DNA of 19,701 bases from Candidatus Hodarchaeota archaeon (GTDB lineage Archaea > Asgardarchaeota > Heimdallarchaeia > Hodarchaeales > Hodarchaeaceae), in NCBI GenBank assembly GCA_016840035.1, contig JAEOTC010000120.1, positions 1 to 19,701 on the forward strand, written 5' to 3'. The translations under genes were made by a program, and so were the position numbers. The notes below the pieces were generated by a model that searched no databases, was not told where the DNA came from, and worked only from the letters and a program-made list of their open reading frames with translations. Each line of letters opens with the position of its first letter. Positions within the stretch are counted from its first letter, which is position 1. Shown piece after piece: positions 4,439-18,093 of this stretch.

Positions 4439-5266
4439 ATGACTAAAACTTGGAGTTTTAACAGTTATAAGGGTGGTACTGGAAAGACAAACACTAGTTT
4501 AAACTGCGCCGTGCAACTTACACGCTTAGGTAACAATGTGTGCCTATTGGATTTTGATTTTTTGGGTCCCGCTCTTTTTGCAGTCTTCGGTACCAGAGAA
4601 GGAACTTATCTCAATGATGCTTTTTACGAAAATGCGCCCCTAGATGATGTTCTTTTTGAATATAAAAATCCGAGATTGAACGAAAATGGCGGGAACTTAC
4701 TCGTTGGACTCGCAGATCCTAAACCGGAAATAATTTCAAAAGCGTCAACATATTCAGAAGATGAACACCGAGAAGCATTTAGTATCATGTTAGAATTTCA
4801 AGAAATATTAGAGGATGAATTTGCGGTTGATTACATTATAATTGATACTGGACCAGGGATTCGTAGAGACGTAGCAAATGCGCTACTTATTTCTGATGCA
4901 ATCGCATTAGTTCTTAAACCGACTAAAGCAGATCTTGAAGGTACAAAGTTGGTGGTAAATCACATGATGAAAGGAATTGCGCAAGACAAATTTCTTGGAT
5001 TAATCATGAACCGTTCATTAGATCGAAGTTGGCAGGATCATGCGACGCTTGAGTCTGCGGATCATGAGTATAATACGATTACTCAAGGGTTACATTCTTT
5101 TGCAAAAGAGAATGAAGTATTTATCCTTGCAGATATCCCTTGTTATTGTGATATTGCTAGATCTCAATCAGATAAAATTGTAATCTTAGAATATCCAGAT
5201 CATCCGTTTAGTCAGGAGATTAGCAACCTGGCTTCGAATGTAAAAATGAAATCAGAGAGTGAATAA
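4439..5266 (+). CDS. MinD/ParA family ATPase
   Basis: Deviant Walker A SYKGGTGKTNT, Walker A' LLDFDFLGP, Walker B IIIDTGPG and IMNR; 275 aa. Confidence 0.92.
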   Translation: MTKTWSFNSYKGGTGKTNTSLNCAVQLTRLGNNVCLLDFDFLGPALFAVFGTREGTYLNDAFYENAPLDDVLFEYKNPRLNENGGNLLVGLADPKPEIISKASTYSEDEHREAFSIMLEFQEILEDEFAVDYIIIDTGPGIRRDVANALLISDAIALVLKPTKADLEGTKLVVNHMMKGIAQDKFLGLIMNRSLDRSWQDHATLESADHEYNTITQGLHSFAKENEVFILADIPCYCDIARSQSDKIVILEYPDHPFSQEISNLASNVKMKSESE

Positions 5267-5268
5267 GG

Positions 5269-14553: not shown

Positions 14554-17500
14554 ATGAAACTGGACCAATACGTTCAAAAGCTCTTAGTAATGATAATACT
14601 GTTGATTCTTTCCACTCAAATCTCCGTAAATTTAAACTTACACTTAAATAATCATCATTTCCAATCTGAATCTGATTATAGAACAAATAATTTCCTAAGA
14701 AATTTAGATACTTTGAGAGAGGATAATAAGCGAGGAGTTAATACCGAGATTAAAACTGGATTCAACTACAACAACCAAGTTATGTACTCAACAAGTGATT
14801 TTATTGGCCCACCCAATCAAACAGGAAATGAACTCATAGAAAGTATATCAATAACTTCTGATAATGAATTTAAAGCTGTAGCTAGTGCAATGGGGTGGAA
14901 GGGAACGGGAAATCCATATGATCCCATTATTATAGAAAACTACAATTTTTCATTAAATTCTCCTTCTACGAGACTCTTGATGCAGGATACGTCAATAGAG
15001 TTCATAATTCGAAACTGTGTGTTTGAAAATGCGGCCAATCTTACTACATTCTATAATGTCTCGAATGGAATTTTGAGAGGAAACATATTTCAGAACGCAA
15101 CATCATACGGGCTTTTTTTGGATGAGTTTGGGTTAGATAATAGAATAGTTCATAATATTTTTGAAAATAATGCTACTGGAGGTATCAATGCCTTTAACGA
15201 TAATGATACGAACGAATTTTATTACAATTGGTGGGATATCCATAGTGGTGGATCAGCTGGTGGTATTTTTTACTCTGGATATTCTGTTCCTGGATATGGG
15301 GCCTCACTTGAGCAGGGTTCTAGAGTCTATAAACAATACTGGAATGTTGACGAAATGATTCTGATGAGTAATGCTCAATTAGATTGGAATATGTTCAACA
15401 AAGGATTTCTAGGGAATGGAACAGAGGAAAATCCCTACAGAATCCAATATGTCAATTTTTCCTTTGCCATGGAAACCCCTCTTATTGATATTTCAAATGT
15501 AGATAAATACCTCGTGCTTGAAGATTGTTATTTTGATGCAAATTATATGGTTACAGCAATTAACATGAACAGTGCTTCGAATATTGAGATTAAAAACTGT
15601 ACGATACTTAAAGGTGCCCCTGGTATTAATGCAGATTCAGTAAGTAACTTCTTTATTTTAGACTGTAGTATTAATGAGTCAGGCACTCATGGATTTTATG
15701 GCACCAATATCAACGACTTGTTCATGATAGATTGTAGTATTACTGACTCAGGTTCTGATGGATTTTATGGTTCTAATATTAATGACTCGATAATCGATTC
15801 ACTCAGTATCTACAAAACACAAAGTCAAGGCTTATTTTTTAGGTATAGCAATAATGTGTCAGTAAGAAATTCTCAAATGGAAAATATTACGTACACTGGA
15901 TTATTTTTTCAATACAGTTCCGATATCATTGTTAATAACTGCATTGTCCAAAACTGTCTTGCTGTTAACAGTCGAGGTATTCGATGTGATAATGTTGACG
16001 AAATTAGGATTAATAATACTGAGGTACATAACATCTCTGGATATGCAGTTTACCTGTACTATACATCAAATAGCACAATTAACAACAGTGAGATTAGTTT
16101 TTCAAGTATTGGCCTGTTTACATATACCCTAGGAGATTGTAATATTTCTTCTACAACTATTTGGAATCATACTAGATATGGAATAGAAGTAATGCCTGGA
16201 GAAAACAACAATACATTCTCTGATCTTGACATTTTCAATTGTGATACAGGGATGAAAATAACTGATACAAGAACAAACGTCCTGATGTACAATAGAATTC
16301 ATCATAATAATATTGGGATTGAATTAGATGGAGAGGAAGGAGAAACTGAATTTACTTCGATATTTTGGAATAATGTAACTTCAAATTATGGGACAGGAAT
16401 TCTTCTCACTTTTGCAGCAGAAAACTTAATTTCTTCTAATAGAATTCAGAATAATAACAAAGGAGTTGAATGTACTAGTTTTTCTGAAAATAATACATTT
16501 TACCAGAATACTTTTTTGAATAATGAAGTAGTAGATAATGGGACCACAAATTATTGGGATAATGGTTCATATGGAAATTATTGGGATACTTATTTCGGAA
16601 TAGATGCTGATGGTGATGGATTTGGTGATACTCCCTATTCTATTCCAGGTTCGGCAAATGCATTCGATAATTTTCCTCTAGTTAGTCTAATTCCTCTTCC
16701 TGAAATCGTTCTAACTGTTCCACAAAACTCATCAATTATTAATTCGTATGCAACACTGGAATTTCTCTTTTTAAATAGTAATGGGACCTATATTTATAAT
16801 TGGGATGGTAGCAGCAATCAAACAGCCAGTATTGAAGAACCGATACCATTACCAGCAACAGAGGGTCTACATACACTGGCCATTTACCTTAGTAATGGTC
16901 AGACATGGACAAAAGAAAGGTATATGTTCACTTTGGATAATACAGATCCAGTTATTGAATCATGGGATAATCTTCATGAGGGATCGGAGGTAGGAGCAGG
17001 AACTACATTAACTTTCTCGATTATTGATTTGCACTTTGAGAATTTCTGGTATGTATGGAATACTACTCACGGATCTTTACCTGTAGTTAGTTCCGACATT
17101 CCTTGGGTAGAAGTCCCCAATATTACTGGTGACTGGACTTTAAGGATTTACGCTAATGATACTGCAGGAAACGAGCATTATAATTCTATAACTGTAACTG
17201 TTCTTGCTCCTGTAGATATGACATTAATTTATCCCAATGGAGGAGAAGATGATGGAGGATATATCAATATTACCTGGGTAAGCTCTGAAGATCTTACGTA
17301 TAACCTGCAATACTCCCCTGATGGTGGATATACTTGGGTAACACTCAGTGAAAGTCTTAATTCTACTTTTTACATATGGGACACAGCTACACCTGGACTA
17401 AATGGATCAACGTATCTAGTTCGAATCCGCAGTATTACACCTGGAAAACCTGGAGAAATTCGTTCAGAAACATCATTTTCGATTGTAAACATAATAAAAA

Positions 17501-18093
17501 AATATTTACCAGTGGGTACAACAGATATCAAGATGCCGGATATTAATATCTCAATAACAGTTTCTGAAGCAACTAATGTTACCATTCAGCGGTTAACACA
17601 AGTAGTTCAGTACATGACTCCCAATAAAAGTGATTATTATAATTACGGCTTATTCATTGATATAATTTTAGAGAATCAAGATGCTTTAGAGGTTTTGATA
17701 GTTAGTTTTAGTGTAGCACATCTTCTCGACACACTAACCGCTCAAGGATTAGAAATCTACGATATTGAAGTATTCTTCTATAATGACTCCTCACATGAAT
17801 GGGAACCAGCTGATGAAACCGCACACAACAAAACATTGTCGTTAGTAATTGGTACATTTAACCATACGACGACAATTGGAGCACTTGGTCGTGCAGAAAG
17901 ACCTACTATATCTGAAGGGGAATTTCCATTCTTTTTCATCCTTCTTATTGTACTATCTCTCAGTGGAGTTGCAGGTGGAGCACTTTTGATTTATGAACAT
18001 CAACTAAAGATGCAGAGCGGAGAATTATCCATACTTTCTCAGATTGAGAAGTATCTAAAAGAACTCCAACGTCGATTAGGCAAAGAGGAATAA
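14554..18093 (+). CDS. Membrane-anchored surface glycoprotein with right-handed parallel beta-helix (NosD/CASH-like) domains, Ig-like domains and C-terminal TM
   Basis: Signal-like N-terminus, ~23-aa Asn/Ile/Gly beta-helix repeats, NosD-type GNYWDTYFGIDADGDGFGDTPYSIPG..DNFPL, and a C-terminal ~390 aa paralogous to the 2110-aa protein. Confidence 0.88.
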   Translation: MKLDQYVQKLLVMIILLILSTQISVNLNLHLNNHHFQSESDYRTNNFLRNLDTLREDNKRGVNTEIKTGFNYNNQVMYSTSDFIGPPNQTGNELIESISITSDNEFKAVASAMGWKGTGNPYDPIIIENYNFSLNSPSTRLLMQDTSIEFIIRNCVFENAANLTTFYNVSNGILRGNIFQNATSYGLFLDEFGLDNRIVHNIFENNATGGINAFNDNDTNEFYYNWWDIHSGGSAGGIFYSGYSVPGYGASLEQGSRVYKQYWNVDEMILMSNAQLDWNMFNKGFLGNGTEENPYRIQYVNFSFAMETPLIDISNVDKYLVLEDCYFDANYMVTAINMNSASNIEIKNCTILKGAPGINADSVSNFFILDCSINESGTHGFYGTNINDLFMIDCSITDSGSDGFYGSNINDSIIDSLSIYKTQSQGLFFRYSNNVSVRNSQMENITYTGLFFQYSSDIIVNNCIVQNCLAVNSRGIRCDNVDEIRINNTEVHNISGYAVYLYYTSNSTINNSEISFSSIGLFTYTLGDCNISSTTIWNHTRYGIEVMPGENNNTFSDLDIFNCDTGMKITDTRTNVLMYNRIHHNNIGIELDGEEGETEFTSIFWNNVTSNYGTGILLTFAAENLISSNRIQNNNKGVECTSFSENNTFYQNTFLNNEVVDNGTTNYWDNGSYGNYWDTYFGIDADGDGFGDTPYSIPGSANAFDNFPLVSLIPLPEIVLTVPQNSSIINSYATLEFLFLNSNGTYIYNWDGSSNQTASIEEPIPLPATEGLHTLAIYLSNGQTWTKERYMFTLDNTDPVIESWDNLHEGSEVGAGTTLTFSIIDLHFENFWYVWNTTHGSLPVVSSDIPWVEVPNITGDWTLRIYANDTAGNEHYNSITVTVLAPVDMTLIYPNGGEDDGGYINITWVSSEDLTYNLQYSPDGGYTWVTLSESLNSTFYIWDTATPGLNGSTYLVRIRSITPGKPGEIRSETSFSIVNIIKKYLPVGTTDIKMPDINISITVSEATNVTIQRLTQVVQYMTPNKSDYYNYGLFIDIILENQDALEVLIVSFSVAHLLDTLTAQGLEIYDIEVFFYNDSSHEWEPADETAHNKTLSLVIGTFNHTTTIGALGRAERPTISEGEFPFFFILLIVLSLSGVAGGALLIYEHQLKMQSGELSILSQIEKYLKELQRRLGKEE
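15661..15798 (+). repeat. 69-bp imperfect tandem duplication (one beta-helix rung)
   Basis: DCSINESGTHGFYGTNINDLFMI followed by DCSITDSGSDGFYGSNINDSIID. DNA similarity is still visible (GAyTGTAGTATTA...ATGGATTTTATGG). Confidence 0.75.
17912..17954 (+). repeat. 43-bp exact direct repeat, copy 2
   Basis: Identical to 14230-14272; offset 3682 bp. Confidence 0.9.

Follow-up and report, generated by a model that had tools for sequence, protein, structure and literature searches.

What would an archaeon do with a MinD-type ATPase, a degenerate relative of that ATPase fused to a longin domain, an orphan membrane protein and two very large surface proteins, all encoded in a row? The question is raised by contig JAEOTC010000120.1 of Candidatus Hodarchaeota archaeon, an Asgard archaeon whose assembled genome (GCA_016840035.1) is 4.3 Mb long, 87% complete and 34% G+C. 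The window analyzed here is the entire contig, 19.7 kb. Its list of open reading frames (ORFs) gives five genes, all on the plus strand: P0001 at 4439-5266, P0002 at 5269-6513, P0003 at 6518-8068, P0004 at 8091-14423 and P0005 at 14554-18093, separated from 5' to 3' by gaps of 2, 4, 22 and 130 nucleotides (nt). An initial annotation had described five co-directional genes with these same gaps, encoding an ATPase, a degenerate MinD-longin fusion, a membrane protein and two surface proteins with a common anchor. The ORF list bears out the layout exactly, and the gene identities are confirmed. A sixth part, which that annotation did not include, is a gene for an acidic protein of 72 amino acids (aa) at 4005-4223 on the minus strand, divergent from the P0001 gene.

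Comparison with other genomes supports the view that these genes form one conserved module. Our leading reading, held tentatively and at somewhat less than an even chance, is that the genes make up a self-contained accessory cassette, found in Hodarchaeales and Asgard archaea related to them, whose products would act jointly at the membrane on a cognate surface protein.

Recurrence of the cassette

Relatives of these proteins are few. A word-index search found 16 for P0002 and 12 for P0003, and the sources of the relatives are labeled as Hodarchaeales, Hodarchaeota, Heimdallarchaeota, 'Thorarchaeota' and 'Promethearchaeota' metagenome-assembled genomes (MAGs). The genes for P0001, P0002 and P0003, the core trio, recur tightly spaced in all eleven further distinct loci that have a P0003 homologue, one of which (L029) is a fragment holding the last two genes. 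Where genes were called (L002, L005, L006, L011, L012, L013 and L014), the trio is adjacent with gaps of 0-29 nt. The same order is seen from ORF matches in L027, L028 and L030.

The loci differ in what surrounds the trio. L006 (76% identity) has the same six genes. L002, L003 and L004 (63%) have the small gene, the MinD gene, the pseudo-MinD-longin gene, the transmembrane (TM) protein gene and a gene for a 2104-aa giant, and then an MFS gene instead of the beta-helix protein. L005 (47%) has other flanks and carries the small gene, the trio and a 2334-aa giant; L012 (59%) has the small gene and the trio with a 1266-aa beta-helix protein only; L028 (about 56%) has the small gene, the trio and an 1850-aa protein; and L027 (about 58%) has the trio and the beginning of a beta-helix protein at the contig end. 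In L013 and L030 (31-35%) the trio is followed by a convergent giant with the anchor module (1690 aa with a beta-helix/NHL head, and more than 3300 aa, respectively). In L011 (35%) the trio is accompanied, on the opposite strand, by the small gene and then a 353-aa protein that is hardly more than a signal plus the anchor module. L029 (36-38%) is a 2.7-kb fragment with the end of the pseudo-MinD-longin gene and then the TM gene, L014 (30%) has the trio with no detectable small or anchor gene, and L015 (about 29%) has the ATPase pair only. The 72-aa protein, with an invariant EGV.QRAFF..W..FL, is found in eight loci including the window, and in L011 and L013 its gene lies directly upstream of the anchor-module protein gene on the same strand. 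It has no Pfam, NCBIfam or PDB match.

Of the further distinct loci, 10 have enough flank to tell, and in 9 of them, as in the window, an anchor-module protein is encoded beside the trio; identity within this set falls as low as about 30-35%. Three arrangements of its gene are seen: co-directional downstream, convergent downstream (L013, L030) and, in L011, second to the small gene in a divergent operon. Lineages have different flanking genes, and the surface partner is itself exchangeable, being a transthyretin-like giant, a beta-helix protein, a beta-helix/NHL protein or the anchor alone. The initial annotation had proposed co-location in other genomes as a check and had called the surface proteins interchangeable; homologues are indeed co-located, with differing flanks and in all three arrangements, and the four head types bear out the interchangeability. 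Because the pairing of cassette and anchor holds through three arrangements, changing flanks and exchangeable heads, it is good comparative evidence of a functional link.

One could suppose instead that the ATPase pair and P0003 serve some other cargo or task, and that the surface genes are their neighbors only through variable surface-gene islands. Loci L014 and L015, which have no adjacent anchor protein, would fit this, as would the spacing from TM gene to adhesin gene, which runs from 22 to 181 nt across loci, the convergent orientation of the adhesin gene in some of them, and the signs that P0005 is separately transcribed. The anchor module nevertheless accompanies the cassette in nine of ten further loci through three rearrangements and changing flanks, and in this genome it occurs in P0004 and P0005 and nowhere else. 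We regard such a chance neighborhood as rather unlikely.

The gaps of 2, 4 and 22 nt fit a single operon running from P0001 to P0004. A TATA-box-like sequence, TTTAAAAA, picked out by eye at 4362-4369 (plus strand), lies about 70 nt upstream of the P0001 start and is a candidate promoter element for it. A hairpin that spans the P0004 stop codon and has a T-run behind it (14412-14452, plus strand) marks a possible transcript end, and a second TATA-box-like sequence, TTTATAAA, stands at 14475-14482 (plus strand), 72 nt upstream of the P0005 start, as another candidate. Given the hairpin, the T-run and the TATA-like box in the 130-nt gap, P0005 is probably a separate transcript with its own promoter. 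A sigma-70 promoter scan gave chance level, 65 sites found against 64.8 expected, with a model that does not apply to archaea.

How widespread the cassette is was surveyed with one genome per species, covering 83 genomes of the class, 400 of the phylum and 22 species of the genus, this one included. Many of the sampled genomes are incomplete, and absence here means not found. For the P0003 family, 2 of the 83 class genomes gave a match, both of them members of the window's genus, and in the phylum set of 400 no match was better than E 1e-4. Full-length P0002 orthologues appeared in 3 of the 22 species of the genus, the third at a contig end.

The two MinD-fold proteins and the longin domain

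P0001 (275 aa; 4439-5266, plus strand) exceeds the Pfam cut-offs for ParA (ParA/NUBPL), AAA_31, CbiA and MipZ. It has the features that define the MinD/ParA superfamily, KGGxxGK[ST] with the signature lysine and the D.GPG of Walker B/switch II; its deviant Walker A, SYKGGTGKT, is intact, and SYKGGTGK[TS] and IIIDTGPG are kept in all nine orthologues aligned. It scores far under the curated MinD cut-offs (55.2 against 201.75 bits for minD_arch, TIGR01969, and 37 against 212.9 for minD_bact) and below the cut-off of every NCBIfam model, ParA included, with BcsQ at E 0.014. The closest solved structures by sequence, Pyrococcus MinD and Soj, are reached at E 4e-7 only. Because the scores lie so far under the curated cut-offs and the solved relatives are so distant, P0001 is, judged by its sequence, a divergent member of the MinD/ParA superfamily and not MinD proper. 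It had been described as an intact MinD/ParA ATPase, which the superfamily matches and the intact deviant Walker A bear out. Min partner genes of the MinC/MinE type are absent from the window. By eye, no membrane-targeting helix is evident in P0001, and its C-terminus (...SNVKMKSESE) is not amphipathic. Toward the C-terminus P0001 carries a CxC motif, PC[YFML]CD (here PCYCD, aa 234-238, 5138-5152), which is invariant in the nine orthologues and absent from P0002. This motif could be a metal or redox site.

P0002 (414 aa) is a distant paralogue of P0001, at 23% identity. Residues 1-279 (5269-6105, plus strand) make up a MinD-fold domain with a basic linker at its end, and CbiA and AAA_31 Pfam matches span aa 19-233. 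In an AlphaFold model of the whole protein, with a predicted local distance difference test score (pLDDT) of 70, this domain matches Soj, MinD, FlhG, FleN and BcsQ (Foldseek E about 4e-8, TMt 0.66-0.74). SLTNIVEKT stands in the position of Walker A, and NLPN where P0001 has DTGPG. Walker A and Walker B are degenerate in all 20 aligned members of the family, down to 21% identity. Because the degeneracy is present throughout these 20 relatives, the domain appears to be an ancient, long-standing pseudo-enzyme and not a decaying gene, and it would be expected neither to bind nor to hydrolyze ATP.

The relation of this pair to tyrosine autokinases also bears on what the locus might be. Identity as a BY-kinase (Wzc/CapB) was considered for P0001 and rejected: it scores 36.5 bits against the eps_fam cut-off of 108 and has no C-terminal tyrosine cluster. 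The corresponding reading of the whole locus would be a glycan or exopolymer system, in which P0003 is a polymerase or transferase like Wzy or an O-antigen ligase, the P-loop pair is a BY-kinase-like regulator switched on by the tail of a membrane partner in the manner of CapA/CapB, and the beta-helix proteins act on glycans. Sub-threshold matches to eps_fam tyrosine autokinases (E 3.5e-9 for P0001 and 1.1e-6 for P0002, under the same 108-bit cut-off), the beta-helix/NosD head of P0005 and the character of P0003 as an orphan with 10-12 TM helices all lean that way. The missing tyrosine cluster speaks against it, as do the partner heads, which are not always beta-helices, and no locus read has a glycosyltransferase, flippase or sugar-nucleotide gene. 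We consider such a system very improbable.

The remaining 135 residues of P0002 (aa 280-414; 6106-6513, plus strand) have no match to the Pfam longin model by sequence, even at E<=10, and their assignment comes from predicted structure. They were folded separately with AlphaFold2 from a 14-sequence alignment (pLDDT 77, predicted template modeling score 0.74). The model has the topology beta-beta-alpha-beta-beta-beta-alpha-alpha, with no N-terminal helix and two C-terminal helices. Foldseek against the PDB returned AP-2 and AP-1 sigma, zeta-COP, the mu N-domain, TRAPP Bet5, Trs23 and sedlin, and Mon1-Ccz1 at E 4e-5 to 1e-3, and all of the best 17 matches are longin proteins. VIA, which is independent of Foldseek, placed a VAMP7-type longin at Z 11.6, with other longin matches to synbindin, TRAPPC subunits, Fuzzy, AP sigma/mu and Sec22; overall these span Z 11.6-10 over 104-122 aligned residues. 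By the same measure the SRX domain of SR-alpha, a subunit of the receptor of the signal recognition particle (SRP), matches at Z about 10 (6frk_y, 5ck3_A, 2go5_1), and roadblock, MglB and LAMTOR proteins reach only Z 7-8 over shorter alignments. An atlas of protein clusters points, as a lead only, to one cluster in which 22% of the members have Fuzzy-longin (score 0.85). That residues 280-414 are a longin domain is therefore well supported at the level of the predicted fold, whose scores for longins (Z 11.6-10) against roadblock (7-8) uphold the longin call made at the outset. Distant orthologues of P0002 (L011:4713-6188, 492 aa, and P0035 in L013, 504 aa) have about 80 aa more at the C-terminus; in the L011 orthologue this extension has a weak helix-hairpin-helix match, HHH_5, at E 0.003, below the cut-off.

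A profile of this longin domain found 299 proteins at E<=1e-3 among 1.84 billion representatives. Ten of these relatives were looked up, and the sources named among them are Hodarchaeota, Heimdallarchaeota and Odinarchaeota MAGs. Of the representatives listed, 148 were classed, with TM segments counted by crude hydropathy. Degenerate MinD plus longin accounts for 11 of them. The commonest architecture, in 91 (P0048, P0054, P0056 and 88 more), has at least three predicted TM segments and a C-terminal longin domain; these proteins are archaeal, for example from an Odinarchaeota MAG, and 350-385 aa long. A further 25 are short and seemingly stand-alone longin proteins, and 21 fit no class. The membrane parts of the multi-TM longin proteins have no detectable similarity to P0003 (hmmsearch --max, best E 0.09), and the neighborhood of P0048, in L033, is unrelated to the cassette.

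The same genome holds a second pseudo-MinD-longin paralogue of 563 aa, on contig C144 at 5212-6903 (plus strand; locus L044). Its Walker A reads SRTSSVGKQT, it has about 150 aa of extra C-terminal region, and it shares 19% full-length identity with P0002. Many species of the genus, perhaps the majority, have proteins of the C144 type. In all five genomes read, this one and those of four other species, the paralogue is followed by a Ras-family small GTPase, with no more than one gene in between (here L044:7807-8355). Since synteny within the genus extends over the entire region, the linkage counts as a lead only and not as independent support.

The membrane protein and its surface partners

P0003 (516 aa) has about 11-13 hydrophobic segments, in keeping with the roughly 11 TM helices first ascribed to it, followed by a charged C-terminal tail of about 100 aa. 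The polytopic part lies at 6518-7759 (plus strand), with some 11-12 TM helices, and the cytoplasmic tail, aa 415-516, at 7760-8068 (plus strand). When 12 relatives, with identities down to 31%, are aligned, conservation is highest in the tail, which reads HASRHR.VI..IRE.P.DF.FL..LG..ERK...W.K.D...K.G.IKP. Within the membrane part HH, EW, N.H, GNNT and HG are invariant, invariant His, Glu, Asn and Asp residues lie inside TM segments, and there is no invariant Cys among the 12. P0003 has no profile match in Pfam (12 members), NCBIfam or the PDB; the exosortase, archaeosortase, rhomboid and CPBP families of Pfam and NCBIfam do not match it, and the cluster atlas gives unnamed archaeal clusters only. 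Prediction of a complex of P0001, P0002, ATP and the P0003 tail (aa 415-516, the scored partner) scored 0.67. Both controls in which the partner was replaced gave 0.00; the control in which P0002 was replaced gave 0.63, a margin below the rule and too narrow to count for or against binding.

A conserved cytoplasmic tail next to a longin domain might also speak for outside-in signaling. The surface proteins would sense contact, and P0003 would pass a conformational change on to its tail, which would switch the MinD/pseudo-MinD-longin pair, with an output in polarity, protrusions or a small GTPase. The high conservation of the tail suits this proposal, longin domains are typical platforms for small GTPases (PMC10933270), and the distant pseudo-MinD-longin paralogue conserved across the genus adjoins a Ras-family GTPase. 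That last linkage is synteny within one genus and not independent, and the cassette loci read contain no GTPase, kinase, response regulator or other output gene. Signaling of this sort seems unlikely to us.

P0004 (2110 aa; 8091-14423, plus strand) has an N-terminal signal/anchor, transthyretin-like/CarboxypepD_reg repeats and Ig-like domains, with Pfam matches to CarboxypepD_reg and Big_13, and from about aa 1600 onward the module that it shares with P0005. P0005 (1179 aa; 14554-18093, plus strand) has a signal, a right-handed beta-helix head (Beta_helix E 7e-39, NosD E 3e-29) and the anchor module. Both proteins have a signal-like hydrophobic N-terminal segment, a C-terminal TM helix and a tail of about 36 aa. 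Their heads are unrelated, and their C-termini are 51% identical over about 515 residues, TM helix and tail included, in agreement with the common anchor module that had been reported. The minimal conserved module covers aa ~1813-2110 of P0004 (13527-14423, plus strand) and aa ~887-1179 of P0005 (17212-18093, plus strand). In P0004 it consists of a YPNGGE beta domain, an Asp-box-like SPDxGxxW, the juxtamembrane sequence G.FNHTTTIGALG, the TM helix and the tail.

In all ten anchor modules aligned, two elements are kept. One is the extracellular YPNGGE...W...S(P)(D/N)..G..W beta domain; the other is the juxtamembrane motif G.x[NDES]H[TVL]T[TVL][IF]G[AV][LM], which precedes the TM helix by about 15 residues and lies in the regions 14163-14222 and 17845-17904 of the window. 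The motif is kept even in the 353-aa anchor-only protein of L011. The module has weak Pfam matches only (Big_13, BNR, PKD), and PDB sequences gave no informative match. Among 5.8 billion proteins, a word-index search with this region found only one other full-length carrier, the L006 orthologue. The extracellular membrane-proximal part is kept in all the surface proteins and the cytoplasmic tail among closer relatives only. The restriction of tail conservation to close relatives makes a link between the adhesin tail and the longin domain less likely than was at first assumed. Because the universally conserved part of the anchor is extracellular and juxtamembrane, P0003 looks the likelier reader of the surface cargo than the cytoplasmic longin domain.

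The same motif admits a different use. The cassette may be a machine that targets or inserts the type-I surface protein, in the style of SRP54/SR-alpha/SR-beta or of Get3/Get1-2, or P0003 may be an intramembrane or juxtamembrane enzyme that processes it at the G.x[NDES]H[TVL]T..G motif, immediately outside the TM helix. The longin model matches the SRX domain of SR-alpha at Z about 10, P0001 and P0002 both belong to the MinD/SIMIBI fold class, and P0003 has invariant His, Glu, Asn and Asp in its TM segments. The unit of motif, spacer, TM helix and charged tail is the sole part kept in all surface partners, the 353-aa anchor-only protein included. One machine next to one target is also what dedicated sorting systems look like; the pairing is typical of exosortase/archaeosortase systems. 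The surface proteins have ordinary N-terminal signal-like segments, though, for which the general Sec/SRP route should suffice. Compared with SR-alpha, P0002 has its domains in the opposite order, and the ATPase is of the MinD type, not of the FtsY or Get3 type. P0003 also lacks an invariant Cys, and neither exosortase, archaeosortase, rhomboid and CPBP nor any other Pfam or NCBIfam family matches it. We hold targeting or processing to be possible, at the level of a minority alternative.

Under our leading reading, a cassette acting jointly on its surface protein, the parts could work together as follows. P0001 would be a nucleotide (ATP) switch, and P0002 its non-hydrolyzing partner and an adaptor platform. 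Both would be recruited to the membrane by the conserved cytoplasmic tail of P0003, a step suggested because P0001 has no evident membrane-targeting helix of its own. P0003 would in turn contact the conserved extracellular/juxtamembrane module and the TM helix of the surface protein. By binding and hydrolyzing ATP, the switch would then govern whether that protein is deployed, clustered or retained, and at which place, and the heads of the surface proteins would be exchangeable cargo. Orphan ParA/MinD ATPases control placement in just this sense for other envelope machines.

Several observations weigh against this proposal. MinD/ParA dimers use a signature lysine that acts in trans, and this lysine is missing in P0002, so that a sandwich dimer of MinD with pseudo-MinD would be without a trans-lysine. 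It is equally possible that P0001 forms homodimers, perhaps bridged through the CxC, that are bound by P0002. The invariant polar TM residues of P0003 (HH, EW, N.H, GNNT, HG) would suit an enzyme or a transporter just as well. Two loci have no anchor protein next to the ATPase pair: L014, where the TM gene is retained, and L015, where the pair stands by itself. P0005 is probably transcribed apart from the rest. Because it is so rare, the cassette is, on the genomes sampled, a sporadic accessory feature and not a core cell-biology system.

A bolder version of the proposal is an archaeal cargo-adaptor, in which a longin domain carried on a SIMIBI-class pseudo-NTPase, with an active MinD switch and a dedicated membrane receptor, would select or position anchored cargo. 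If this were true, the cassette would be a prokaryotic example, in the closest relatives of eukaryotes, of the later logic of SR-alpha/SR-beta and longin coat adaptors. We think it improbable as stated.

The flanks of the window are housekeeping genes, for an alanine-racemase-fold enzyme, an M32 carboxypeptidase, a PEMT/ICMT-family methyltransferase and an inorganic pyrophosphatase. The M32 peptidase and pyrophosphatase genes were sought at a syntenic site in other species of the genus and are far apart there, so no empty site can be defined. The PEMT/ICMT-family membrane methyltransferase (3289-4008, minus strand) shares its strand with the 72-aa gene, whose end it overlaps by 4 nt, and L002 also has a PEMT gene, a few genes off. 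Because the gene downstream of the small ORF varies among loci, the methyltransferase is probably not a member of the cassette. At the contig end, a 3'-open ORF (19414-19701, plus strand) has weak HipA-like kinase matches at E 0.0025-0.007, below the cut-off. An anti-phage defense system was considered with PADLOC and rejected, the one match being at the P-loop level (PDC-M28B, E 1.5e-4, 43 residues).

Comparison with known systems

The nearest known kind of system is the orphan ParA/MinD placers: archaeal MinD4, which serves the archaellum and chemosensory arrays, and FlhG/FleN, TadZ/CpaE, BcsQ and ParC/PpfA. Like them, P0001 is an ATPase of the MinD/ParA fold with a deviant Walker A, and its gene neighbors those of the membrane and surface proteins that it presumably serves. 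As BcsQ has the small BcsR, P0001 has a very small protein encoded next to it. Unlike them, the cassette has no pilin, PilB/PilC-type, secretion ATPase, Min partner or cellulose synthase genes, and it has instead an obligatory dead paralogue with a longin domain, an orphan polytopic protein, a small acidic protein and a private anchor module. To our knowledge an invariant CxC is not known from any of these placer families. Records exist of archaeal loci for type-4 filaments that contain both MinD-like ATPases and large adhesin-like proteins (PMC13705601).

Among longins, the C-terminal domain of P0002 is like the eukaryotic and Asgard proteins (AP sigma/mu, zeta-COP, TRAPPC1/2/4, VAMP7/Sec22/Ykt6, Mon1-Ccz1, SRX) in its predicted fold and topology. 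The fusion partners listed for Asgard longins are GTPases, roadblock and TRAPPC3 (PMC10933270); unlike the architectures described there, the longin domain of P0002 is fused to a MinD-fold pseudo-ATPase, and no cassette locus read has a small GTPase gene. Longins are eukaryotic signature proteins of Asgard archaea that rarely stand in operons with identifiable partners (PMC10933270), and their role in these archaea is almost unknown. Here a longin has fixed genetic partners, namely an ATPase switch, a membrane protein and a surface cargo, which makes the cassette a small, testable system for what an archaeal longin binds. Experiments are conceivable because cultured Hodarchaeales now exist (PMC13705601).

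A striking parallel in domain composition is the SRP receptor. There, SR-alpha joins an SRX longin to a SIMIBI NG domain, pairs with the NG domain of SRP54 and is anchored by SR-beta; the cassette likewise fuses a SIMIBI-class fold to a longin, partners it with another SIMIBI NTPase and links it to a membrane protein. The cassette differs in that the domain order is reversed, the NTPases are MinD-type and ATP-type rather than FtsY/Ffh-type, and the fused copy appears catalytically dead. The resemblance is best taken as an analogy only, and nothing shows common descent.

In its pairing of a polytopic protein with neighbors that share a private motif, TM helix and charged tail, the cassette is like archaeosortase/PGF-CTERM, exosortase/PEP-CTERM and rhombosortase/GlyGly-CTERM. 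It is unlike these pairs, whose motif directly precedes the TM helix, in that the motif lies about 15 residues before the TM helix, within a folded module of 250 aa, and in that P0003 has neither an invariant Cys nor a family match, where the sortase-type enzymes have invariant Cys, Arg and His. A literature search found no paper describing a MinD-longin fusion or this cassette composition, which agrees with the original remark that no system of this composition had been described. The six-part combination has not been described before, and the function given to it here is our inference. Set beside the known systems, it defines the architecture pseudo-MinD-longin, with at least two paralogous subfamilies in Hodarchaeales, together with two orphan protein families and a private anchor module that serves very large archaeal surface proteins whose heads can be exchanged.

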